Assembly: GCA_963824555.1 (NCBI GenBank)
Contig: CAWGPW010000043.1
Coordinates: 68,763-132,762 of the forward strand
DNA from: an uncultured delta proteobacterium
GTDB taxonomy: Bacteria; Myxococcota_A; Polyangia; Fen-1088
Direction: 5' to 3'
Length of the DNA: 64,000 nt
A program made the position numbers and the translations under genes. Numbering within the stretch: position 1 is the first letter of the stretch; each line of letters begins with the position of its first letter. The notes under the pieces are model-generated. The model did not search any database. It had not been told where the DNA came from and saw only the letters and a list, made by a program, of their open reading frames with translations. Of the stretch, positions 26,076 to 40,137 are shown in pieces.

Positions 26076-26404
26076 AGTCGCATTGGACCCGCGATCGGGC
26101 CCAATCGCAATGGTTTGATGACAGACAGCTTGAGCAAGCCGGCCGCTTGCTAGTGTGCGACGGTAGCCTCGCCCACGGGGGCACCGGGCGGATCTGACTG
26201 GTGGGAAACGGAACGACAAGGACGTCTCCGAAGCGGTAGGGCATGGTGCCGACCTTCAGACGTCGTTGTAAACGCCGTCCTCGGGATTGTCCCAGACCTT
26301 GGCGAAGGCAGGCGAGATTCGCAATCACGCACGAGGGCGAGAACCCGGCCACGGACGTCCCCAAGGGATCGCGGCAACAAAATAGGCTTGACACCCGAAG
26401 ATTC

Positions 26405-26420
26405 TGTGAATATATTCACA
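26405..26420. promoter_or_regulatory. Rex operator (perfect palindrome TGTGAATATATTCACA) overlapping the rex start region
   Basis: Matches Rex consensus TTGTGAA-N4-TTCACAA. 16-bp perfect inverted repeat located 6 nt upstream of the rex GTG. Confidence 0.7.
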
Positions 26421-26425
26421 ACATC

Positions 26426-27109
26426 GTGAGCGAACCGGCCGTAACTCCAGAAGCCATCCCCCAGGCTGGGGAAGCAAGCAGGAAAACCGAGCGCCATGTC
26501 TCGGTTTCCACGGTGGAGCGGCTGTCCGTCTACCGCAAGCTCCTGGAAGAGCTGCACTACGACGGCGTAGAATACGTCTACTCGCAGCAATTGGCCGAAA
26601 TGGTCGGGGTGACGCCGGCTCAGCTGCGTCGCGACCTGGCCAGCTTCGGCTCGTTCGGCAACATCAGCCGCGGCTACAACGTCTACCAGCTCACCCGCAC
26701 CATCAGCCACATCTTGGGCACCGATTCGCCCCAAACCGTGGCTTTGTTCGGGGCCGGCGATTTGGGCCGTTCGCTGCTCGCCTACCGCGGCTTCGAGGAG
26801 CGTGGTTTCCACATCGGCCTGATCTTCGATCTGGACGCCGAGAAGGCGGGCAAGGTCTTCGCCGGCCGTCGCTGCTACGCCGTCGAGGACATGGAGAAGG
26901 TCCTGCCCGAGCTCGACGTCCGCATCGCGGTCCTGGCTTGTCGGCCCCCCGGTCTGCAGCAGCTCGTGGACCGGCTGGCCAAGCTTGGAATCTTGTCCAT
27001 TCTCAACTTCGTTCCAAAGCGCGTCACCCCCGCACCAGGAGGCTACGTCGAGAGCATCGACATCGCTGCCAAGCTCGAAAAGCTCTCGTTCCTTAGCCAG
27101 AAGAAGTAG
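26426..27109 (+). CDS. rex: Redox-sensing transcriptional repressor Rex (GTG start inferred)
   Basis: N-terminal winged helix (ERLSVYRKLLEEL, QQLAEMVGVTPAQLRRDL) and Rossmann NAD(H) site (VALFGAGDLGRSLL). Confidence 0.85.
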   Translation: MSEPAVTPEAIPQAGEASRKTERHVSVSTVERLSVYRKLLEELHYDGVEYVYSQQLAEMVGVTPAQLRRDLASFGSFGNISRGYNVYQLTRTISHILGTDSPQTVALFGAGDLGRSLLAYRGFEERGFHIGLIFDLDAEKAGKVFAGRRCYAVEDMEKVLPELDVRIAVLACRPPGLQQLVDRLAKLGILSILNFVPKRVTPAPGGYVESIDIAAKLEKLSFLSQKK

Positions 27110-27244: not shown

Positions 27245-27664
27245 ATGAAGAAGCGCGTTTTGCTCGTCGACGATGACAAAGATCTCGTGGGGTCGCTCAA
27301 GGTCGTTCTCGAAGCCAACGGCTTCGAGGTCGCGACCGCCCACAACGGAAGCGACGGGCTGGCGCAGGTGGCCGCGCAGCGTCCCGACGCCATCGTTCTC
27401 GATGTCATGATGGACACCGACACCGAGGGGTTTGGCGTGGCTTACAAGCTGGAAGGCGATCCCGCCACGCGCCGCATTCCCATCGTGCTTCTGACGGGCT
27501 TCATGGACCACATGAAGGAAAAGCGCGAGTCCTTCGACTTCATCACCGGGCGCGATTGGCCGGCGGCGAAGTTGATGAAGAAGCCCGTCGTCGCCGCCGA
27601 GCTCGTGGCCGCCCTTCGCCAGCTTCTTGCCGAGGCGGAAGCCGTCGCCAGCGCGGTTGCCTAG
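27245..27664 (+). CDS. Stand-alone response-regulator receiver (CheY-like) protein
   Basis: 139 aa REC only (LLVDDD...AIVLDVMMD...KKP). No output domain. Confidence 0.8.
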   Translation: MKKRVLLVDDDKDLVGSLKVVLEANGFEVATAHNGSDGLAQVAAQRPDAIVLDVMMDTDTEGFGVAYKLEGDPATRRIPIVLLTGFMDHMKEKRESFDFITGRDWPAAKLMKKPVVAAELVAALRQLLAEAEAVASAVA

Positions 27665-27719
27665 TTCCCTCACCTATTCATCACCAAGCAGCAGCATCGC
27701 AGCACCCGAGGTAAGTCGT

Positions 27720-28202
27720 ATGTGTCAGGTCGATCAGATCATCGCGGGCCATGAGGAGCTTGGCAAAGAGCACCTCATCCCGCTTCTGCAGGAGATTCAG
27801 GCCAAGGAAGGCTACCTATCCCAGGCCGCCATGAACAAGGTGGCGGACGCCACTGGCGTTCCGCAGAGCCGTGTGTTCGGCGTTGCGACCTTCTACAACC
27901 AGTTCCGCTTTGCCCCCAAAGGCGCGCACGTCATCGAGGTGTGCCGGGGCACGGCCTGCCACGTGAAGCAGAGCTTGAAGCTGGCCCAGCACCTGACACG
28001 CAAGCTGAATCTCAAGCCGAACGGCAACTCGCCGGACGACAAGTTCACCGTCATCACGGTGGCTTGCCTCGGGGCGTGCTCCATCGCGCCGGTCATCAAG
28101 CTGGATGGCGAGTTCTACGGCCATCTCGACGTGGAAAAACTCGACCACCTGCTCGACGAGGCCGCGCAAGAGTGCAAAGGGGACAGCCATGCGGTCAAGT
28201 AA
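27720..28202 (+). CDS. NuoE-like [2Fe-2S] thioredoxin-fold subunit of NADH-dependent [FeFe]-hydrogenase (HydC/HndA-like)
   Basis: CRGTACHVKQ...VACLGACSIAPV [2Fe-2S] Cys pattern of the NuoE/HoxE family. Confidence 0.8.
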   Translation: MCQVDQIIAGHEELGKEHLIPLLQEIQAKEGYLSQAAMNKVADATGVPQSRVFGVATFYNQFRFAPKGAHVIEVCRGTACHVKQSLKLAQHLTRKLNLKPNGNSPDDKFTVITVACLGACSIAPVIKLDGEFYGHLDVEKLDHLLDEAAQECKGDSHAVK

Positions 28203-30201
28203 TCTGATTGCGGCGTGCTGCGAGCGCTGCACCCACCGGCCGGGCAACCCGTGTCGCGATTTGATCCGCTGCTTGGCCGAGGGGCCGATCTGTCACAGCG
28301 ACGATGCCTGCGCGAAGATGCGGCAAGAGCGCCTGGCGAATGCTCGGCGAGGCGGGCAGGGGACGCTCATCTTCGTCGGCGCCGGTACCTGCGGACGCGC
28401 CAACGGATCCACCAAGGTCATCGCCAGGATCGGTGCGTTCTTGGAAGAGCACAAGATCGCGGCGGAGCTCGTCGAGGTCGGATGCGTCGGCTACTGCCAG
28501 CGCGAGCTCTTCGTCGACATTCAGAAGCCAGGCGAGCCCAGGCTGGCCTACGCGGACATCAATCTGGGCAACGTCGATCAGTTGCTCGAAGCCGTGCTCC
28601 TGCGCCATGAAATGCGCAACGGCTTCCTCTACGGCCGGCATGGCGATGGCGGTCCGGCCTGGGCCGACGTTCCGGAAATCAACACCACTGATTTCTTCAA
28701 GAAGCAGGTGAAGGTGGTGCTGCGCAACTCGGGCATCATCGACCCGAGCACTCTCGATGCGGCGCTGGCGGCTGGAGCCTTCAAAGCCGCAGCCAAGGCG
28801 GTTTGCACCATGACGCCGGAGGAAGTCTGCAACGAAGTGTTGGCCGCCGGCCTGCGCGGACGCGGCGGTGCGGGTTTCCCGACCGGGCAAAAATGGAACA
28901 TCGCCCGCCAGACCCCGCGCGCGCAGAAGTACCTCATCTGCAACGCGGACGAGGGCGATCCCGGCGCCTTCATGGATCGCGCCGTGCTCGAAAGCGATCC
29001 CTTCTTCGTCATCGAGGGCATGCTCATCGCCGCCTACGCCATCGGCGCCAGCAAGGGCTACATCTACTGCCGGGCCGAGTACCCCTTGGCCGTCGAGCGT
29101 TTGACATCTGCCATCGCCCAATGCCGGCGCGTGGGCCTGCTCGGCAACAATATCCTCGGCAGCCTGTTTTCGTTCGACATCACCATCAAGCAGGGCGCCG
29201 GCGCCTTCGTGTGCGGCGAAGAAACCGCCATCCTGGCCAGCATCGAAGGTGGGCGCGGCATGCCCAGGCCGAGGCCGCCGTATCCCGCCGTCAGCGGCCT
29301 TTTCTGTAAGCCCACGGTGCTCAACAACGTCGAAACCCTGGCCAATGTGCCGGTCATCATCAATCGCGGCGCCGAGTACTTTCAGAATCTCGGGTTGGGC
29401 AAGGCGGCGGGCACCAAGGTGTTCGCGCTCTCCGGCGCCATCCGCAACACTGGCCTCGTGGAGGTTCCCGTCGGCATCAAGCTGCGTACCATCATCGAAG
29501 AGATCGGCGGCGGCGCGCTGCCGGGCCACAGGTTCAAGGCGGTGCAAATCGGCGGTCCGTCGGGCGGCTGCATTCCGGAGCAGCACCTCGACACGGTGAC
29601 CGACTACGCGGCCCTCATCGAGCTCGGCGCCATGATGGGGTCGGGCGGCATGGTGGTGATGGACGAACGCACCTGCATGGTCGACGTCGCTCGCTACTTC
29701 ATGGAGTTCATCCGCAACGAATCCTGCGGCAAGTGCACCCCGTGCCGCGAAGGCACCACGCGCATGCTGGAGATTCTGACCTCCATCACCGAGCGTCCGG
29801 TGGGCGACGAGGAACGGCGCCTGGAGCGTTTCCGCGGCGTGCTTCACCTGCAAGAGCTCGCCAGCACGGTCAAGGAAGCCTCGCTGTGCGGGCTCGGTCA
29901 ATCGGCGGGCAACCCGGTGCTGTCCACGCTGCGCTTCTTCCGTGACGAATACGAACGTCACGTCATCGACCAGCGCTGCCCCTCGGGCGAGTGCCAGGGG
30001 CTGGCCGTGTACGAGGTCGACAATGCCACCTGCATCGGGTGCCTTCTGTGCAAGAAGGCTTGCCCAAGCAACGCCATCGTCGGCGAACGCAAGCAGGCCC
30101 ACTACATCCTGGTCGACAAGTGCGTCGGCTGCGGCACCTGCGTCACCGCGTGTCCCAAGCATTCCATTCACCTTGTTAGCGAAGAGAGGGCCTGCGTATG
30201 A
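28189..30201 (+). CDS. NuoF-like NADH-binding FMN/FeS subunit (HydB/HndC-like) with N-terminal 2Fe-2S domain and C-terminal 2x[4Fe-4S]
   Basis: GLRGRGGAGFPTGQKW (FMN/NADH site). SCGKCTPCREG. C-terminal CIGCLLCKKACP...CVGCGTCVTACP. Overlaps neighbours (ATGA at both ends). Confidence 0.85.
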   Translation: MRSSNLIAACCERCTHRPGNPCRDLIRCLAEGPICHSDDACAKMRQERLANARRGGQGTLIFVGAGTCGRANGSTKVIARIGAFLEEHKIAAELVEVGCVGYCQRELFVDIQKPGEPRLAYADINLGNVDQLLEAVLLRHEMRNGFLYGRHGDGGPAWADVPEINTTDFFKKQVKVVLRNSGIIDPSTLDAALAAGAFKAAAKAVCTMTPEEVCNEVLAAGLRGRGGAGFPTGQKWNIARQTPRAQKYLICNADEGDPGAFMDRAVLESDPFFVIEGMLIAAYAIGASKGYIYCRAEYPLAVERLTSAIAQCRRVGLLGNNILGSLFSFDITIKQGAGAFVCGEETAILASIEGGRGMPRPRPPYPAVSGLFCKPTVLNNVETLANVPVIINRGAEYFQNLGLGKAAGTKVFALSGAIRNTGLVEVPVGIKLRTIIEEIGGGALPGHRFKAVQIGGPSGGCIPEQHLDTVTDYAALIELGAMMGSGGMVVMDERTCMVDVARYFMEFIRNESCGKCTPCREGTTRMLEILTSITERPVGDEERRLERFRGVLHLQELASTVKEASLCGLGQSAGNPVLSTLRFFRDEYERHVIDQRCPSGECQGLAVYEVDNATCIGCLLCKKACPSNAIVGERKQAHYILVDKCVGCGTCVTACPKHSIHLVSEERACV

Positions 30202-31919
30202 GCCTCGTCAACTCACTGTCCATAGACGGAAGAGAAGTTCAATTCACCTCCGGCGAGACGGTGCTCTCGGCGGCCTTGCGCGCGGGGATCGAGATCCCGC
30301 ACCTGTGCTCGATGGATTGGGCCTGCAAGCCCGAGGCGGCCTGTCGCGTCTGTTTGGTCGAGCTCGAAGGCGTGCCGCGCCTGCAGACGAGCTGCACCCT
30401 CGAGGCCAAAGACGGCCAGAAGGTGCGCACCCGCTCGCCGCGCGTGCAGGCCGTGCGCCGCAACATCGTCGAGCTACTCATCGCCAACCACCCGGGCGAC
30501 TGCCTGACGTGCGCGCGCAACCAGAACTGCGAGCTGGCCCAGGTAGCCAGCGAGCTCGGCGTGCGCGAGCGACGCTACCGCGGTCTCAAGAAGAACCACC
30601 CCCTCGATCTGTCCTCGCCGGCTCTCGTGCGCGATCCCAACAAGTGCATCCTGTGCGGACGTTGCGTGGCCGTGTGCCACCAGGTGCAGGGCGTGGGCGC
30701 CATCGACTTCATCGACCGCGGCTTCAAGACGCGCGTCGGGCCTGGCTTCCACGACGGCATCAACGTGTCGAATTGCATCTTCTGCGGTCAGTGCACGCGG
30801 GTGTGCCCGACTGCGGCCCTGATGGAGAAGAGCCAAGTCGACGCCGTGGTGGCGGCGCTGGCGGACCCCAACGCTATCGTCGTCGCGCAGGTCGCCCCGG
30901 CGGTCCCGGCCACGCTGATGGAGAATGCGCAGTCGAGCTCGGTGCGCACCATGCTGCTGCGACTGGCGGCGGCGCTCAAGCGCGTCGGCTTCGACGCCGT
31001 GTTCGACACCGGCTTCGCCGCCGACCTGACCATCATGGAGGAGGTCTCCGAGCTGATTCGGCGGGTGCAGACGGGCGGTCCCCTGCCTATGTTCACCAGC
31101 TGCTCGCCTGGCTGGATCCAATACGTCGAGAAGTACCGGCCCGACCTCATTCCGCACCTGTCCACCTGCAAGTCGCCGCAGCAGATGGCGGGAGCGCTGA
31201 TCAAGGACGTGTACCCCAAGCACCGCGATCTGGGTGGCAAGCGACTGGTGTGCGTGTCGCTCATGCCGTGCACGGCGAAGAAGGTCGAAGCCAGCGAGCT
31301 TGGCGACGTCGACTTCGTCCTGACCACGCGCGAGATCGATGAGCTACTGGTCCGCTTCGGCATCGATCTCGACAAGGTCACCGAGCTTGGCTCCCTCGAT
31401 GCGCCCTTCTCCTCGGCCAGCGGCGCGGGACGACTCTTCGGCGGCACGGGTGGTGTCATGGAGGCGGCCATTCGCACCGCGCACAAGATGCTTACGGGCA
31501 GCGAGCTCAAGGGCGGCTTCAAGGTCGAGGAGGCGCGTGGGCTCGAAGGCATCAAGTGCTTCTCGCTCGACGTGGGCGGGACCACGCTCAACTTCGGCAT
31601 CGTCAACGGCCTCGGGCGTCTCAAGCCCATTCTCGATCCGCTCGCCAAAGGCGTGTCCAATCTGCACTTCATCGAGGTCATGACCTGCCCCGGCGGTTGC
31701 ATCGGCGGCGGTGGCCAGCCCTACGACTCGGATCCCGAAGTCATTCGCGTCCGGCTCGAACGCCTCTACGACGCTGACCGGCGCTCGACCCTCAAGACCT
31801 CGCACGACAATGACGAGGTTCAAGAGCTCTACGCCGAGATGCTTGGAAAACCCTTGGGCGAGCTGAGCCACCACCTGCTTCATCGCAGCTACATCGATCG
31901 GCGAGCAGAGGAGAGATAG
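30198..31919 (+). CDS. hydA: [FeFe]-hydrogenase catalytic subunit (HydA/HndD-like) with variant L1 motif TSCSPGW
   Basis: N-terminal 2Fe-2S + 4Fe-4S domains. H-cluster motifs L1 FTSCSPGW, L2 MPCTAKKVE, L3 EVMTCPGGCIGGGGQP. Confidence 0.85.
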   Translation: MSLVNSLSIDGREVQFTSGETVLSAALRAGIEIPHLCSMDWACKPEAACRVCLVELEGVPRLQTSCTLEAKDGQKVRTRSPRVQAVRRNIVELLIANHPGDCLTCARNQNCELAQVASELGVRERRYRGLKKNHPLDLSSPALVRDPNKCILCGRCVAVCHQVQGVGAIDFIDRGFKTRVGPGFHDGINVSNCIFCGQCTRVCPTAALMEKSQVDAVVAALADPNAIVVAQVAPAVPATLMENAQSSSVRTMLLRLAAALKRVGFDAVFDTGFAADLTIMEEVSELIRRVQTGGPLPMFTSCSPGWIQYVEKYRPDLIPHLSTCKSPQQMAGALIKDVYPKHRDLGGKRLVCVSLMPCTAKKVEASELGDVDFVLTTREIDELLVRFGIDLDKVTELGSLDAPFSSASGAGRLFGGTGGVMEAAIRTAHKMLTGSELKGGFKVEEARGLEGIKCFSLDVGGTTLNFGIVNGLGRLKPILDPLAKGVSNLHFIEVMTCPGGCIGGGGQPYDSDPEVIRVRLERLYDADRRSTLKTSHDNDEVQELYAEMLGKPLGELSHHLLHRSYIDRRAEER

Positions 31920-31930
31920 AGTATTCAGCC

Positions 31931-33956
31931 ATGGGCGTGATTCAGACCATCCTGCAGAATTGCCGCCGCTGCTACTCGTGCGTGCGCGAGTGCCCGGCCA
32001 AGGCGATCAAGATCGTCGACGGCCAGGCGTCGGTGGTCAAAGAGCGCTGCATCGCCTGCGGCAACTGCACGGTGGTCTGTTCGCAAAACGCCAAGGCCTA
32101 TGCCAGCGGCATCGAGCGGGTTTGCCAGCTTCTGGCTGGCGGCGGTCCGGTGGTGGCCATGGTGGCGCCGTCCTTTCCCGCGGATGACTGCGGCCAGGAT
32201 CCGGGGCGTCTCGTCGGGGCGTTGCGCGCACTCGGCTTTTCCCACGTGGTCGAGGTCGCCTACGGGGCGGATCTCACCAACAAGGCCTACCGCGCGTACA
32301 TCAAGGAGCACCCCACGGGCACGCGCCTGGCCACGGCGTGCCCGGCGCTGGTCGAGTACGTGCGCAAATACGCGCCCCATCTGGTGGACTGCCTGATTCC
32401 CATCGTGTCGCCCATGATCGCGACGGCGATGGCGGTCAAGGCGCTCTATGACCAGTCGCACGCCTGCGTCTTCATCGGGCCGTGTGTCGCCAAGAAGCTG
32501 GAGATGCAAGATCCCAACGTGCCGGCCGTCGTCGATGGCGTGCTGACCTTCGACGAGCTGAGGCGACTCTTCGCCGAGCGCGGGGTGCAGGTCGGCGACG
32601 CCACATCGGGCGAGTTCGATCCGCCGCATGCCGGTTCCGGGCGGCTCTATCCCCTGGTTGGTGGTTTGCTCAAGGGTGCCGGTCTCGAGCGCAGCTCGCT
32701 CAACGCCGAGGTCATGGTGCTATCGGGCGCGCCCGAGATTCTCGATGTCCTGGCCGACCTGCGCCCAGACGACCCGCAGCCGCTCTTCATCGAACCGCTC
32801 ATGTGCCGTGGTTGTTACAGCGGTCCCGCCACGCACGGGGACAAGCGGCGCCCGCAGCGTAAGCGGCGCGTGGCCGACTACGTGAAGTCGCGCATGGACG
32901 AGACTGCCGAGGCGTCGATGGAATTGCCTGCGCTCGATCTCGGACGCACCTTTACGGTCGACGATCAACGCCTGAAAGAGCCGAGCGAGCAGGAAATCAG
33001 GGTCATTCTCGCTCGCACCAACAAGTTCGCCACCGAGGACGAGCTCAACTGTGGGGCGTGCGGCTACGAATCCTGCCGTGCCAAGGCCGTGGCCGTGTAC
33101 CGCGGGCTGGCCGAAGAGGCCATGTGCCTACCCTTCATGATCGAGCAGGCCGAGCGCGTGTGTCACGAGCTGAACGTCCCCTGGCCCAACCTCAAGGACA
33201 TCCACCGCCACCTCATCAACACCGAGAAGCTGGCCTCCATGGGGCAGATGGCGGCCGGTGTGGCGCACGAGCTGAACAACCCCCTCGGCACCATCCTGCT
33301 CTATACCAACCTGCTTGCGCGCAAGCTCAAGGACCGGCCCGAGCTCGATCATGATTTGAAACTGCTCGTCGACGAGTCCAACCGCTGCAAGAAAATCATC
33401 GGCAACCTGCTCGACTTCGCCCGGCAGAACCGGGTGCAACTGGAACGCACGAATGTGGCCGAGCTTTTTCAGCGCGTGGTCGAGGATTCGCTCTTCACCT
33501 TGCGCGACACGGGATCCGCCTTGCGCATCACCTGCGAAGCACCGCCCGATCTGCACGTCGATCTCGACAAAGATCAGATCGGCCAGGTGCTCATCAACCT
33601 GGTCAAGAACGGCATCGAGGCCATGGAAGGCAAAGAGGGCACGGTGCGCCTGGTGGCCGTCGACGAGCCGGCGACCGGACGCGTGCGCATGGCGGTCAGC
33701 GACGAGGGCCGGGGCATCGCGCCGGAGGCCCGCGACAAGGTCTTCCAACCGTTCTTCACCACCAAGAGCCTCGGTCGAGGCACCGGGCTCGGCCTGCCCA
33801 TCGCCTACGGCATCGTCAAGATGCACGGCGGACGGATTCTGGTTCGATTCGGATCCCGTGTGCGGAACCACGTTCACCCTGGAATTGCCCAAAACCCAGT
33901 CGCTGCGAAGGAGTCACCTGTATGGCGAAGAGCCCCAAGATTCTGTTTGTCGATGA
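31931..33956 (+). CDS. Sensory [FeFe]-hydrogenase-like (HydS-type H-cluster domain) fused to histidine kinase. Contains a +1 frameshift at ~33836-33840.
   Basis: 2x[4Fe-4S] ferredoxin N-term. H-cluster-like motifs ATACPALV / IGPCVAKKLE / EPLMCRGCYSGP. Cx2Cx4Cx16C motif (CGACGYESC...16...C). HisKA H-box GVAHELNNPLGTI. HATPase (GRGTGLGLPIAYGIVKMHGG), then the frame changes. The downstream frame gives WFDSDPVCGTTFTLELP. Confidence 0.7.
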
Positions 33957-34344
33957 CGACCGAGATTTTCTTGCCGCGCAGACCGCTTTTTTCGGTGGGC
34001 GTGGCTACGAGGTCGTCACCCTCGACCGCGTGGAAGGCGCCCTGGAACGCATCAGTCAGGAGCGGCCCGATGTCATCGTGCTCGACCTCATGATGGAGCA
34101 CTACGATTCGGGCTTCATGCTCGGGCGGCGCATCCGGCAAGACCCGGCCATGCTCGAGGTTCCCATCCTCATGCTGTCGGGCGTGGCGGCGGCGACGGGA
34201 CACAAGTTCGCCGCCGAGGCCGCGGCGCTCAAGGATTGGATCAAGCTCGACGCCTTTCTGGACAAGCCGGTGACCGGCCGCCAGCTGCTCAAGGTCGTCG
34301 AGGAAAAGCTCGGGGCACGAGGCGCGGCTACGGCCACGGGATAA
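33922..34344 (+). CDS. Stand-alone response-regulator receiver protein (paralog of 27245..27664)
   Basis: 141 aa REC only (ILFVDDD...VIVLDLMMEH...DKP). Confidence 0.8.
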   Translation: MAKSPKILFVDDDRDFLAAQTAFFGGRGYEVVTLDRVEGALERISQERPDVIVLDLMMEHYDSGFMLGRRIRQDPAMLEVPILMLSGVAAATGHKFAAEAAALKDWIKLDAFLDKPVTGRQLLKVVEEKLGARGAATATG

Positions 34345-34346
34345 CC

Positions 34347-35805
34347 GTGCCCAGCATCCTGGTCATCGACGACGAATACGGCGTTCGCTCGGGGATTCGC
34401 CAGATCCTCGAGCTGGAAGGCTACGCCGTGGAGGTCGCAGCGACCGGGCGCGAGGCCCTGGAGCTTCTCGACCAGCGACCGTTCGACATCGCGCTCATCG
34501 ACTACCAACTGCCCGATCTCGATGGGCTGACCCTGCTGGCATCCATGCGCAGCCGCAAGCTCGCCACCATGACCTGCATGATCACGGCCTACGCCAACAT
34601 CGATACCGCCATCGCCGCCACCCGGCAGGGTATCGATTTCTTCCTGCCCAAGCCGTTCTCGCCCGACGATCTTCTCGGCGTCATCGAGACGTTGTCGCGC
34701 CATAAGCAGCTCAAAGAGGAAGCGGAGAAGCTGCGCAAGGAGAACGAGGCCAACCTGCTTGCCCTGGCCACCGAGAAAAGCCAAACCAGCTCGCTGGTGG
34801 CGTCCCTGCGCGACGCCGTCCTGGTCATCAATCGCGAGCGCGAGGTGGTGCTGGTCAACCACGCCATGTCCGCCTTGCTCGGCCGCGCGCCCAACAATTT
34901 GGTGCGCGCGCCTGTCGACGAGGTGCTCGGGGCTGCGCCCTTGTCCGGGCTGGCCGACTTGCTTTCCGCCCAGGGCGATGAGGAACGCAAGCTCGCCGAG
35001 CTCACCATCGGCGACCGCATCTTCTTCGCCAGCGTGGTCGCCTTTCATGGCGAGCAAGGGGAAGCTCTCGGTCGCATCCTGACCCTGGCCGACGTGACCG
35101 ACGTGCGCCGCATGGCCATGGAAAAGCCGCGTTTCATTCGCACCATGGTGCATGAATTCCGCTCTCCCCTCGGCGCCATCCGCAGTCTCATCGAGGTGGC
35201 CACCGAAAAGAGCCTGGGCGCCGACCTTGCGCCGTACTTGCCCTTTCTCGAACGTGCGGACAAGCGCATCGACAAGATGGTCGAGCTGATCGGCGAGCTG
35301 CTCTCGCTCTCGCGCATCGATCTGGAGCGGACCACAAATGTCGCGGAGCCCCCAGCGGACGTCTCGGTGGCTGTGGCCGCGACCCTGGATCTGTACCGGG
35401 AAAAACTCGTCGAGCGCAGGATCACTGCCAGCGTGGATGCCGCTCCCGACCTGCCGCGCGCGCGCATCGGCGACGAGGATTCTGAGGACCATCCTTTCCA
35501 ACCTGGTGGGCAATGCCATCAAATACGGTCGGGACGATGGTTCTTTGCGCCTGCGCGTGGTCCAGCACGAAGGCAAGCTCCACATCGAGGTCGCGGATTC
35601 AGGGATCGGCATCCGTGCCGAGAATCTGCCCCAAGTGTTCCAGGAGTTCTTTCGCGAGAAGCGCTCCGAGACGCGTGACATCGACGGCAACGGACTTGGG
35701 CTGGCCATCGTCAAGCGTCTGGTCGAGCGGGTGGGAGGCCAGATCGAGGTCGAAAGCACCCTCGGCGTGGGCTCGCTCTTTCGCGTGATTCTTTGCCCCG
35801 CCTAA
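34347..35805 (+). CDS. Hybrid receiver-PAS-histidine kinase. GTG start. Contains a +1 frameshift at ~35478-35484.
   Basis: N-terminal REC (ILVIDDE...IALIDYQLPDLDG). PAS-like middle. H-box MVHEFRSPLGAIRS. The HATPase block (ILSNLVGNAIKYG...GNGLGLAIVKRLVE) lies in the +1 frame (ORF 35338..35805). Confidence 0.7.
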
Positions 35806-35905: not shown

Positions 35906-38377
35906 ATGACTCAAACGACTCCCGAGACCTCTGGCCCCGATCTGGCCGCGCTGCGCGACTTGCTGGCGAGCTGGCCGGATCTCAAGCCGCGCAACCTGAT
36001 CGCCGTCTTGCAACGCACGCAGGAAGCCTACGGCTACCTGCCCATGGAGGCGCTGGACGCCATCGCCGACAGCATGCACATCGCCGAGGCGCGGGTGTAC
36101 GGCGTGGCCACCTTCTACTCGCAGTTTCGCCTGAAACCGCAGGGCGAGCACGTCATCCAGGTGTGCAACGGCACCGCCTGCAACGTGAAGGGATCGGAAG
36201 ATCTGCTGGGCGAGCTGGTGGCGGTGCTGGGCATCCACCCCGGCGACACCACCCCCGACGGCAAGGTGACGCTTGAAAAGGTGAATTGCGTGGGCGCCTG
36301 CGGCGTGGCGCCGGCCATCGTCGTCGACGGCGAGGTGCACGGCCGTGTGACCCCCAAGTTGGTCGGGCGATTGGCGCGCAAGCTCCTCACCGCGCCGAAG
36401 CCAGTGGTCCTCTCGCGCAAATCCGCGGCCGAGAAGGTCCGCGGGCGCACCTTTCTCGAGCGCTGCTGCGACAAGTGCCAGAACCGTCCCGGCACGCCGT
36501 GCCCGAACTTTCTGCTTTGTCGCATGGAAGGCGTTTCCTGCCACGACGACGAACAGTGCGGGAAGTTCCGTGAGGAATTGCGCCAACTGGCCGAGCACAA
36601 CGCGCCCCAGTACGCGGCCACGGCCTTTCTGTGCAAGGGCCTGACCTGCGACGCCAGCGACGAGCCGGGGGTGTACAAGACCTTCCTTTCAGAACTGAAG
36701 AAACGCGGACTGACGGGCAAGGTCAATTTCATCGAGACCGGCTGCCAGGGACTGTGCGAGGTGGGCCCAATCGTGCAGCTCAAGCCTCTCGAAGCCTTCT
36801 ACTGCCGCGTGAAGGCCGCCGATGTGGCCGAGATCGTCGAGAAACACATCCTCGGCGGTCAGATCGTCGAGCGCCTGCTCTACGCCCCCGGCCACGTGAC
36901 GGAAGCCTCGATTCCGTTCTACAGCAAGCAAGTCCGCCGCGTGCTTTCCAACACCGGTAAGATCGATCCCGAGAACATCGACGAATACATCGCCCGCGAG
37001 GGGTACAAGGCGCTCTACAAAGCGCTCAAGGAAATGACGCCCGAGCAGGTCATCGCCGACGTGACTGCGGCGGGCTTGCGTGGCCGTGGCGGCGGTGGGT
37101 TCCCCACGGGCAAGAAATGGGAGATTGCGCGAGCCCAGGCCGACAGCACCCGCTACATCGTGTGCAACGCCGACGAGGGCGACCCGGGCGCGTTCATGGA
37201 TCGCAGCCTTCTCGAAGGCGATCCGCACCGCGTGCTCGAAGGCATCCTCATCGCGGCCTACGCCATCGGTGCCGAGCAAGCCTTCATCTACTGCCGGGCC
37301 GAGTATCCGCTGGCTATCCGCCGCCTGGAAATCGCCATGGCCCAGGCGCGGCTGTACGGATTGATCGGTCCCAATATTCTTGGGACCGGCAAGAGCCTGC
37401 ACGTGGAGATCGTGCAAGGCGCGGGCGCCTTCGTGTGCGGCGAGGAGACCGCCATGCTCTCCAGCATCGAGGGCAAGCGCGGCATGGCCCGCAACAAGCC
37501 GCCCTATCCGGCCCAGCACGGTTTCGCCGGACATCCGACCTGCGTGAACAACGTGGAAACCTTCGCCAATGTGCCGCTGATTCTGGCCAAGGGCGTGGCG
37601 TGGTTTCGCAGCGTGGGGACGGAGAAGAACGCCGGTACCAAGATTTTCTCGCTGTCGGGCAAGATCAAGAACACCGGTCTCGTCGAGGTGCCCATGGGCA
37701 TCACCCTGCGCGAGCTGCTGCACGACATCGGCGGCGGCGCGCCCGAGGGTTCGACCATCAAGGGCGCGCAGACCGGCGGTCCGTCGGGCGGGTGCATCCC
37801 GGCCGATCGCATGGATGTCACCGTCGACTACGAAAGCCTGAGGCGGCTGGGCGGGATGATGGGCTCGGGCGGCTTGGTGGTCACCGATTCGGGCACCTGC
37901 ATGGTGAGCTTCGCCAAGTTCTTCCTGGGGTTCACCCAGCACGAATCGTGCGGCAAGTGCATCCCGTGCCGCGAAGGCACCAAGCGCATGCTCGAGATCC
38001 TGGAACGGATCACGGATGGCAAGGGCAAGATGGAGGACATCACCGAGCTGCGCCACCTGGCGCTCGTCATCTCGCGTACCTCGGCCTGCGGACTCGGGGC
38101 CTCGGCGCCGAGCCCCGTGGTGTCGACCCTGCGCTACTTCGAGCACGAGTACGTGTCGCACATCAAGGACACGCGCTGCCTGGCCGGCGTGTGCCGCTCG
38201 CTGCTCACCTACCACATCCTGGCCAACTGCCGCGGTTGCGGCCTGTGCGCGCGCGGCTGTCCCGTCCAGTGCATCAGCGGCGACAAGGGCGAGATGTACG
38301 TCATCGACAACGCCCGCTGTATCAAGTGCGGCGAGTGCAACCGGGTATGTCCCTTCGGCGCCGTGGCGCGCACCTAG
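35906..38377 (+). CDS. NuoE-NuoF fusion subunit of a second NADH-dependent/bifurcating-type [FeFe]-hydrogenase
   Basis: 823 aa. N-terminal NuoE-like 2Fe-2S (CNGTACNVKG...VGACGVAPA). Extra Cys-rich linker. NuoF core (GLRGRGGGGFPTGKKW, SCGKCIPCREG). C-terminal 2x[4Fe-4S]. Confidence 0.85.
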   Translation: MTQTTPETSGPDLAALRDLLASWPDLKPRNLIAVLQRTQEAYGYLPMEALDAIADSMHIAEARVYGVATFYSQFRLKPQGEHVIQVCNGTACNVKGSEDLLGELVAVLGIHPGDTTPDGKVTLEKVNCVGACGVAPAIVVDGEVHGRVTPKLVGRLARKLLTAPKPVVLSRKSAAEKVRGRTFLERCCDKCQNRPGTPCPNFLLCRMEGVSCHDDEQCGKFREELRQLAEHNAPQYAATAFLCKGLTCDASDEPGVYKTFLSELKKRGLTGKVNFIETGCQGLCEVGPIVQLKPLEAFYCRVKAADVAEIVEKHILGGQIVERLLYAPGHVTEASIPFYSKQVRRVLSNTGKIDPENIDEYIAREGYKALYKALKEMTPEQVIADVTAAGLRGRGGGGFPTGKKWEIARAQADSTRYIVCNADEGDPGAFMDRSLLEGDPHRVLEGILIAAYAIGAEQAFIYCRAEYPLAIRRLEIAMAQARLYGLIGPNILGTGKSLHVEIVQGAGAFVCGEETAMLSSIEGKRGMARNKPPYPAQHGFAGHPTCVNNVETFANVPLILAKGVAWFRSVGTEKNAGTKIFSLSGKIKNTGLVEVPMGITLRELLHDIGGGAPEGSTIKGAQTGGPSGGCIPADRMDVTVDYESLRRLGGMMGSGGLVVTDSGTCMVSFAKFFLGFTQHESCGKCIPCREGTKRMLEILERITDGKGKMEDITELRHLALVISRTSACGLGASAPSPVVSTLRYFEHEYVSHIKDTRCLAGVCRSLLTYHILANCRGCGLCARGCPVQCISGDKGEMYVIDNARCIKCGECNRVCPFGAVART

Positions 38378-38394: not shown

Positions 38395-40137
38395 ATGAGC
38401 GACGTCAATCTGATCATCAACGACCTGCCGGTGAGCGTTCCCGCCGGCTCGACGATTCTCGAAGCCGCGCAGGCGCTGAGCATCCGCATTCCTACCCTGT
38501 GCTACGACAAGCAGCTCACGGTGTCGGGCGCCTGCCGCCTGTGCGTGGTAGAGGTGGCCAATCCCACGGGCTCCACGCGGCTCGAGCCGTCATGCTCGTT
38601 TCCAGTGCAAGAAGGTATGCGGGTGCGGACCAACACGCGCGAGCTGCGCGATGCCCGCCGCACCATCATCGAGCTGATCCTGGCCAACCATCCGCGCGCT
38701 TGCCAGACCTGCATTCGCAACCAGCGCTGCAGTCTGCAGGATGCCTGTCGTGAATACGGCATCGACAAGATCCGCTACGAGGGCGAAAAGCGGCATCACG
38801 CCGTCGATGCTTCGTCGGTGGCCATCACGCGCCACCCGGACTACTGCATCCTGTGCGGTAAGTGCGTGAAAGTCTGCAAGGAAGTGCAGGGCGTGTACGC
38901 ACTGGATTTCGTCAACCGCGGCTTTTCGACCACGGTGCTGCCGCCCTTCGATCGCGACCTCGCCGACACGGTCTGCGTGTTGTGTGGGCAGTGCTTGCTC
39001 AAGTGTCCGGTCGCAGCCATCCGCGACAAGAGCTACATCAAGACGGTTGCCGATGCGCTGGAAGATCCGGACAAGATCGTCACCGTTCAAATCGCACCCT
39101 CGGTGCGGGCCACCGTTGGCGAGCTCTTCGGCCTTCCCCCGGGCGTGTCGTTGACCCGCAAACTGCCGACCGCGCTTCGCCGCGTCGGTTTCAAGTACAT
39201 CTTCGATACCGATTTCGGCGCCGACATGGCGGTCATGGAGGAAGGCCACGAGCTCGTGGCGCGCTTGCAGAAAGGCGGGCCGTATCCGCTCATCACCAGT
39301 TGCTCCCCGGGCTGGGTGAAGTTCATGGAGCACTTCTTCCCCGAGCTCATTCCGAACACGTCTTCGGTCAAGTCGCCGCAGCAGATTCTCGGCGTGCTGA
39401 CCAAGACGTTCTTCGCCGAGCGCAATGGCATTGACCGCAAGAAGCTCTTCAACGTCTCGATCATGCCGTGCTCGGCCAAGAAGTTCGAGATCCAGCGCCC
39501 CGAACACCGTCTGGACGACGGCACCCCCGAGGTGGACGCCGTCCTGACCACGCGCGAGCTCGGCGACTTGCTCAAGATGCACGACATCGACCTCCCGTCG
39601 CTGCCCGAGTCGGCCTTCGACCCCATCCTGGGCGAAACCACGGGCGCCGGTCTGATCTTCGGCGTGACCGGCGGTATGATGGAGGCCGCGCTGCGCACGG
39701 TGGCCGCGGTGATGGACCCCCATACCGAGCCGCGCATGGAGTACTCGGTCTTGCGCGGAACCGGGGGCATCAAGCGCGGCTCGGTGCTGATCGGCGAGCG
39801 CGAGATTAGGCTTTGCGCCGTGCACGGGCTGGCCAACGCGCGCAAAATCCTCGATGACCTTCGTGCGGGCCGCGAGGAAATCCACTTCCTGGAAGTCATG
39901 GCCTGTCCCGGCGGCTGCATCGGCGGCGGTGGTCAGCCCTTGCCCACCGACGAGGAAACCCGCCGCAGGCGCATCGAGGCCATGTACGCCGAGGATCGCG
40001 GCATGCCCATTCGGCAATCGCACAAGAACCCGGCCGTTCGCACGGTGTACGACGAGTTCCTGGGCGAGCCCTGCGGCGAGAAGGCGCACCACCTTCTGCA
40101 CACGCACTACGCCGCCCGCTCGCCACGCGGGTTCTAA
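38395..40137 (+). CDS. hydA: [FeFe]-hydrogenase catalytic subunit, second copy, also with L1 = TSCSPGW
   Basis: Good RBS (AGGAACGGAGAC). Motifs ITSCSPGW, IMPCSAKKFE, EVMACPGGCIGGGGQP. The last 257 bp are duplicated at 42173..42429. Confidence 0.85.
   Translation: MSDVNLIINDLPVSVPAGSTILEAAQALSIRIPTLCYDKQLTVSGACRLCVVEVANPTGSTRLEPSCSFPVQEGMRVRTNTRELRDARRTIIELILANHPRACQTCIRNQRCSLQDACREYGIDKIRYEGEKRHHAVDASSVAITRHPDYCILCGKCVKVCKEVQGVYALDFVNRGFSTTVLPPFDRDLADTVCVLCGQCLLKCPVAAIRDKSYIKTVADALEDPDKIVTVQIAPSVRATVGELFGLPPGVSLTRKLPTALRRVGFKYIFDTDFGADMAVMEEGHELVARLQKGGPYPLITSCSPGWVKFMEHFFPELIPNTSSVKSPQQILGVLTKTFFAERNGIDRKKLFNVSIMPCSAKKFEIQRPEHRLDDGTPEVDAVLTTRELGDLLKMHDIDLPSLPESAFDPILGETTGAGLIFGVTGGMMEAALRTVAAVMDPHTEPRMEYSVLRGTGGIKRGSVLIGEREIRLCAVHGLANARKILDDLRAGREEIHFLEVMACPGGCIGGGGQPLPTDEETRRRRIEAMYAEDRGMPIRQSHKNPAVRTVYDEFLGEPCGEKAHHLLHTHYAARSPRGF
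39881..40137 (+). repeat. Direct repeat copy 1 (native 3' end of hydA2, 257 bp)
   Basis: About 99% identical to 42173..42429. Differences: CAGCCC vs CAGCTC, stop TAA vs TAG. Confidence 0.8.

Follow-up and report, generated by a model that had tools for sequence, protein, structure and literature searches.

The 64-kb window analysed in this study (the whole stretch of DNA, with a G+C content of 64%) encodes two catalytic subunits of group A [FeFe]-hydrogenases, HydA1 and HydA2, whose L1 motif reads TSCSPGW. Neither protein contains TSCCPxW with both cysteines: the cysteine of the proton relay is present, while the cysteine at the ligand position is replaced by serine. This raises the question of whether the substitution is an error in the data, a mark of proteins that are no longer hydrogenases, or a functional alternative way of holding the cubane of the H-cluster.

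Apart from L1, both proteins have the attributes of M3-type enzymes (Table 1). The domain order of HydA1 is 2Fe-2S, NuoG-type 4Fe-4S, 2x4Fe-4S, H-domain and small-subunit-like C-terminus, and Pfam detected the M3 F-domain families PF13510, PF10588 and Fer4 in HydA1 and HydA2, as well as the H-domain family PF02906 (E=6.5e-78 and 3.9e-86, respectively) and PF02256. The scores against TIGR02512 (429.6 bits for HydA1 and 470.8 bits for HydA2) are above the cut-off of 405.95. Within NCBIfam, HydA1 passes the general group A model only, whereas HydA2 is also above the cut-off of 765 bits of NF040763, the model for NADH-dependent [FeFe] hydrogenases of group A6 (791.3 bits, against 690.5 for HydA1). 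The best PDB matches were Thermoanaerobacter kivui HydA1 for HydA1 (8a6t_A, E=1.3e-166) and Acetobacterium woodii HydA1 for HydA2 (7q4v_A, E=1.1e-184). HydA2 starts at the methionine of MSDVN..., and the 1006-aa ORF beginning at 37117 extends the same reading frame upstream.

Table 1. Genes and motifs of the hydrogenase locus, with positions in the window and the evidence for each assignment.
Feature	Position	Strand	Evidence
Rex-type redox-sensing regulator, upstream of the first operon	26243..27109	+	Pfam Put_DNA-bind_N + CoA_binding
Receiver-domain protein, between the Rex gene and hydC1	27245-27664
hydC1, NuoE-like thioredoxin-like [2Fe-2S] subunit	27627..28202	+	PF01257 (E=9.5e-46); NCBIfam
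hydB1, NuoF-like FMN/NAD(P) subunit with C-terminal 2x[4Fe-4S] domain	28105..30201	+	PF01512, PF10589, Fer4
hydA1, M3-type group A [FeFe]-hydrogenase catalytic subunit, 573 aa	30198..31919	+	Pfam, NCBIfam, PDB match
HydA1 L1 motif, FTSCSPGW	31092..31115	+	Translation; ungapped alignment to PDB homologues
HydS-like sensory-type [FeFe]-hydrogenase domain fused to histidine kinase	31931..34093	+	Pfam Fe_hyd_lg_C, FeS, HisKA, HATPase_c
Stand-alone receiver	33922-34344
Receiver-PAS-HisKA protein	34236-35678
hydCB2, NuoE-like and NuoF-like fusion, single 823-aa ORF	35906..38377	+	PF01257 + PF01512 + PF10589 + Fer4; NCBIfam
hydA2, second M3-type group A [FeFe]-hydrogenase catalytic subunit, 580 aa	38395..40137	+	Pfam, NCBIfam, PDB match
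HydA2 L1 motif, ITSCSPGW	39292..39315	+	Translation; ungapped alignment to CpI, T. kivui HydA1, A. woodii HydA1

The L1 motif of HydA1 is encoded by ttc acc agc tgc tcg cct ggc tgg, corresponding to F299, T300, S301, C302, S303, P304, G305 and W306, with the codon of C302 at 31101-31103 and that of S303 (TCG) at 31104-31106. In HydA2 the codons are atc acc agt tgc tcc ccg ggc tgg, which place C303 at 39301-39303 and S304 (TCC) at 39304-39306, so that the two paralogues use different serine codons. The initial annotation had read both motifs correctly and positioned that of HydA2 exactly, but its interval for HydA1, 31091-31114, is displaced by one nucleotide and would translate as VHQLLAWL. 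Its description of L2 and L3 as canonical agrees with the sequences of both proteins. The L2 motifs, MPCTAKKVE in HydA1 (31263-31289, ligand C358) and MPCSAKKFE in HydA2 (39463-39489, ligand C359), match the pattern MPCxxKxxE, and the L3 motifs, EVMTCPGGCIGG in HydA1 (31674-31709, C497 and C501) and EVMACPGGCIGG in HydA2 (39892-39927, C504 and C508), match ExMxCxxGCxxG.

The identity of the replaced residue was determined from phmmer alignments to PDB chains. These contain no gap against Clostridium pasteurianum CpI, T. kivui HydA1 or A. woodii HydA1 over a stretch that starts about 90 residues ahead of L1 and ends about 60 residues beyond it, and TSCSPGW aligns with TSCCPSW of T. kivui (8A6T), TSCCPAW of Thermotoga maritima (7P5H) and TSCCPGW of CpI (4XDC). 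According to residue numbers reconstructed from the same alignments, the L1 pair is C299-C300 in CpI, C298-C299 in T. kivui and C300-S301 in A. woodii, and Ser303 of HydA1 and Ser304 of HydA2 occupy the position of CpI Cys300, which is among the four residues that ligate the [4Fe-4S] portion of the H-cluster. The cysteine just before it, CpI C299, is the proton-relay residue, and its equivalents are C302 in HydA1 and C303 in HydA2. The serine of both window proteins also aligns ungapped with A. woodii Ser301, with the three other cysteine ligands and the relay cysteine retained. These alignments support the earlier proposal that serine stands at the second L1 cysteine, the ligand position of [4Fe-4S]H.

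An artefact, be it a sequencing or assembly error or a shift of the alignment register that hides the second cysteine, would be the simplest way to dispose of this serine. The closest named homologues are records of metagenome-assembled genomes, the window itself seems to be metagenome-assembled, and an adjacent gene has what looks like a 1-nt frameshift. A gap or shift restoring both cysteines was looked for in the alignments to the CpI, T. kivui, T. maritima and A. woodii chains and none was found; the alignments are ungapped around L1 and anchored on both sides by T-S and P-x-W, and the register shift was rejected. Sequencing error is excluded, as had been argued from the recurrence of the substitution in two diverged paralogues, because HydA1 and HydA2 are 44% identical, specify the serine by different codons and, in the case of HydA1, share it with all of the 120 nearest homologues, which come from independent assemblies. 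We consider an artefact of any kind to be extremely improbable.

The serine state is also common well beyond this locus. TSCSP occurs in every one of the 120 top-ranking homologues of HydA1, whose identities extend down to 63% and which their sources name as Polyangia, Syntrophales and Actinomycetes proteins, and in 114 of the 120 best homologues of HydA2 (TSCCP in the other six), although both searches may be biased towards the motif through their use of a word index. That bias is absent from an exhaustive HMMER scan, run without a word index over 1.84 billion representatives at 50% identity, which gave a serine share of 15-17%; the best 150 matches among the representatives comprised 21 with TSCSP and one with SSCSP, 90 with TSCCP, and the rest with another or no recognisable L1. 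This share agrees with the approximately 20% of hydrogenase sequences that Kertess et al. (2017, PMC5855289), citing Winkler et al. (2013), report for serine at this position; PMC9431212 contains nothing on the TSCSP motif. When a single genome was scanned for each GTDB species, 74 of the best 80 loci encoded TSCSP and were spread over many phyla, including Bacillota (for example Faecalicatena contorta, Holdemania massiliensis, Desulfotruncus alcoholivorax and Phascolarctobacterium), Syntrophus, Smithella, Fidelibacterota, Armatimonadota, Verrucomicrobiota, Calditrichota and others, in addition to a Melainabacteria-type locus from a metagenome-assembled genome (UBA8530). A NuoF-like (HydB) gene lies upstream on the same strand in 76 of the best 80 related loci. 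Cys-type proteins occur at 73-77% identity to Ser-type ones, which suggests that switches between cysteine and serine are not rare. In a neighbour-joining tree of the 50%-identity representatives the two types are interleaved, but the tree is star-like and speaks neither for nor against monophyly of the Ser class.

Among characterised enzymes, A. woodii HydA1 (7Q4V, 7Q4W, 8A5E) has a TSCSPGW motif identical to that of the window proteins, shares with them the M3 architecture and the NuoE/NuoF-like partners, and is 48.5% identical to HydA2 and 43% identical to HydA1. Its Ser301 has been described as replacing a cysteine ligand of [4Fe-4S]H, and the enzyme displays the typical FTIR signature of the H-cluster together with catalytic activity, the native HydABC complex bifurcating at 4.1 U/mg (Katsyv et al., 2023, PMC10021017). 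The differences are that A. woodii is an acetogen of the Bacillota, whereas the closest homologues of the window proteins bear Polyangia-like names, that HydC and HydB are fused in the second operon of the window, and that the window proteins are known here from sequence alone. The same HydABC-type architecture is found in T. kivui HydA1 (8A6T), which is 46% identical to HydA1, and in T. maritima HydA (7P5H), but these two enzymes, unlike HydA1 and HydA2, have the canonical TSCCP and an all-cysteine [4Fe-4S]H. CpI (PDB 4XDC and others) has the same M3 fold at 36-39% identity and its L1, L2 and L3 align without a gap; unlike the window enzymes, it is monomeric, ferredoxin-dependent and has cysteine at position 300. 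TSCSPGW was also reported for HydABC-type confurcating trimeric hydrogenases of Melainabacteria (ACD20; Di Rienzi et al., 2013, PMC3787301), where two proteins additionally exchange an L3 cysteine for isoleucine, whereas L3 is intact in HydA1 and HydA2.

TSCSPGW is, in consequence, a documented natural state of the group A family that does not exclude membership in it, and HydA1 and HydA2 are two further members of an already known Ser-ligand subclass. The initial annotation had suggested that the motif may define a distinct subclass with altered ligation, unless TSCSP proved to be the standard motif of a well-characterised group. It is the motif of a well-characterised enzyme, A. woodii HydA1, for which both structure and biochemistry of a bifurcating HydABC have been published; the idea of a recognisable set of enzymes with altered ligation is sound, but the set is not new, given the A. 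woodii protein and the published share of about 20%.

Regarding function, it is very probable that HydA1 and HydA2 are active catalytic subunits of HydABC type belonging to this widespread natural subclass, with a cubane held by one serine and three cysteines. For the window proteins this reading draws on residue identity, ungapped alignment, conservation of the pocket, operon context and prevalence, all of which were observed, and the steps from there to iron binding by the serine O-gamma and to the behaviour of the A. woodii enzyme are taken by analogy. The cubane of HydA1 would be ligated by the O-gamma of Ser303 together with C358, C497 and C501, and that of HydA2 by the O-gamma of Ser304 together with C359, C504 and C508. 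The adjacent cysteine, C302 or C303, would remain the last proton relay to the adt amine, leaving the proton path canonical, and normal assembly of the H-cluster and normal activity may be expected as in A. woodii HydABC. Judging from the gene content, the pairing with NuoE/NuoF-like subunits would make these enzymes NAD(P)H-linked and probably electron-bifurcating members of group A (HydDB A3; 'group A6' of NCBIfam). Points against this reading are the score of HydA1 below the cut-off of NF040763 and the failure to find hydE/F/G maturase genes in the window ORFs scanned.

The remainder of the H-cluster pocket was compared in a MAFFT alignment that comprised 16 H-domains of the Ser class and 90 of the Cys class, among them those of CpI, A. 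woodii, T. kivui, HydA1 and HydA2. The residues that correspond to CpI C299, E279, S319, E282 and R286 in the proton path and to K358, M353 and M497 in the second shell (CpI numbering) are identical in HydA1 and HydA2 and kept in the Ser class, where the equivalents of the ligands C355, C499 and C503 are likewise conserved, as they are in both window proteins. An altered proton transfer, which had been put forward as a possible consequence of the substitution, is unlikely because the relay cysteine (C302/C303) and the counterparts of CpI E279, S319, E282 and R286 are all retained. No co-varying or compensating residue was detected between the 16 Ser-class and the 90 Cys-class domains, since no column besides the ligand position exceeded a total-variation distance of 0.65; the top-ranked discriminating columns fall outside the H-cluster environment residues that were checked, and glycine at x of PxW is mildly enriched in the Ser class. 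Among the close relatives of HydA2, the discriminating columns are confounded by kinship among the six Cys-class sequences. A cysteine at the position of CpI A321 was considered as a compensating ligand and rejected: it is present in HydA1 and A. woodii HydA1, but HydA2 has valine there, and its occurrence in 46 of the 90 TSCCP enzymes, against 12 of the 16 Ser-class domains, indicates that it is not compensatory because it is also common where both cysteines are in place.

The serine might nevertheless not be bound to iron, the cubane being held by three cysteines and a water or hydroxide, or by C302/C303 swinging in as the fourth ligand and losing its role as a relay. Such a substitution by Cys114 was proposed for the C115A variant of Chlamydomonas reinhardtii HydA1, together with a possible stabilisation of the clusters of alanine variants by solvent ligands (Kertess et al., 2017, PMC5855289). 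The cryo-EM maps of the A. woodii enzyme range from 3.4 to 4.5 A (Katsyv et al., 2023, PMC10021017), a resolution too coarse for showing an Fe-Ser bond; even the best one, at 3.4 A, places the serine at the ligand position and is too coarse to prove an Fe-O bond. The authors of that structure nonetheless model Ser301 as a ligand, and the typical FTIR states and activity would be unexpected if the relay cysteine had been lost (PMC10021017). Besides, the serine is nearly invariant in the homologue sets (120/120, 114/120 and 74/80), and a specific role for its hydroxyl is indicated because it does not drift to alanine or glycine. We regard an unbound serine as improbable, and ligation through the hydroxyl as the better account of the motif.

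Much less probable still is that the Ser variants have lost catalysis or are paralogues other than hydrogenases, such as proteins with a purely electron-transfer or regulatory role. H-domain proteins with degraded motifs do occur among the representatives, such as those with SSSSP or SSASP and no L2 or L3, and the Melainabacteria TSCSPGW proteins described in 2013 also lack the L3 cysteine (PMC3787301). In HydA1 and HydA2, however, L2 and L3 are intact, as are the proton pathway and the second shell. The A. woodii enzyme, which shares the motif, is active as a bifurcating hydrogenase, and the locus already has a separate sensory paralogue.

If HydA1 and HydA2 are indeed active enzymes with a serine ligand, the result obtained with the algal enzyme has to be accommodated. 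In C. reinhardtii HydA1 the variants C115S, C115D and C115A lost most of the cubane, did not take up the [2Fe] subsite and were inactive; C115 is counted as in the expressed protein, and the presence of C114 next to it shows that it is the second cysteine of L1 (Kertess et al., 2017, PMC5855289). C115S is the same exchange of cysteine for serine at the L1 ligand position as in the natural Ser enzymes, but the former is engineered and inactive, whereas the latter are conserved and, in A. woodii, active; the failure of this engineered variant shows that serine is not tolerated in every scaffold. One tentative interpretation, which we find rather doubtful at present, is that the serine ligand acts as a tuning device, shifting the potential of [4Fe-4S]H or its distribution of valence and with it the catalytic bias or the coupling of bifurcation, and that it has been switched back and forth with cysteine between fairly close relatives; serine would then be viable only in a HydABC-type scaffold, given that the algal enzyme loses its cluster on this exchange. 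No co-varying residue accounts for such a dependence on the scaffold. For enzymology, the puzzle is that about a sixth of group A enzymes conserve an exchange of cysteine for serine, and with it a probable oxygen ligand on the cubane, that is destructive in CrHydA1, possibly in relation to the tuning of potential or bias. This puzzle belongs to the field and not to the window, which adds two sequences to it and no new information on its cause. For annotation, it would be wrong to treat TSCSPxW as a defective or exotic L1; the motif identifies a large, probably active group of HydABC-type hydrogenases across many anaerobic phyla.

The genes around hydA1 and hydA2 follow the order Rex, receiver, hydC1, hydB1, hydA1, HydS-like kinase, receiver, receiver-PAS-HisKA, hydC-hydB fusion and hydA2, so that both HydABC-type operons flank a gene for a sensory hydrogenase fused to a histidine kinase. 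HydC and HydB are separate genes in the first operon, and in the second their fusion, hydCB2, lies directly upstream of hydA2. In hydB1 the NuoF_pre_CCxxC signature covers aa 33-80, the true start is probably the ATG at 28189, and the stop codon overlaps the start of hydA1. The Rex-type repressor, which would sense NADH/NAD+, is located directly upstream of the first hydCBA operon in a position that fits redox control of an NADH-linked hydrogenase. A scan of the larger ORFs in the 64-kb window revealed no maturase gene of the hydE, hydF or hydG type, and these genes, if present, are elsewhere in the genome.

The HydS-like protein combines 2x4Fe-4S, an H-domain, a C-terminal 'FeS' cysteine motif, HisKA and HATPase. 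Its L1 reads ATACP, with the relay cysteine replaced by alanine and the ligand cysteine kept, its L2 GPCVAKKLE and its L3 PLMCRGC. These features are typical of the putative H2-sensing HydS and suggest a possible H2-responsive control of the flanking operons. The reading frame contains an apparent 1-nt frameshift at approximately 33839, near the end of the HATPase domain: after '...HGGRI' the annotated frame continues as the meaningless LVRFGSRVRNHVHPG..., and the +1 frame, WFDSDPVCGTTFTLELPKTQ, gives a normal kinase C-terminus. This corresponds either to an assembly error or to a real disruption of the sensor.

HydABC-type hydrogenase operons are usually associated with anaerobes, and the same window also encodes a quinol-type nitric oxide reductase (NorB cytochrome c-like domain and COX1) at 143-2452. 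Finally, the representative library contains, outside the window, a protein of 4122 aa (P0241) with seven tandem repeats of H-domain and small subunit followed by flavodoxin and FAD-binding (CysJ-like) domains, in which the search for L1 motifs matched only TSEGP; either a giant fusion of several hydrogenases or a concatenated gene model could account for it.
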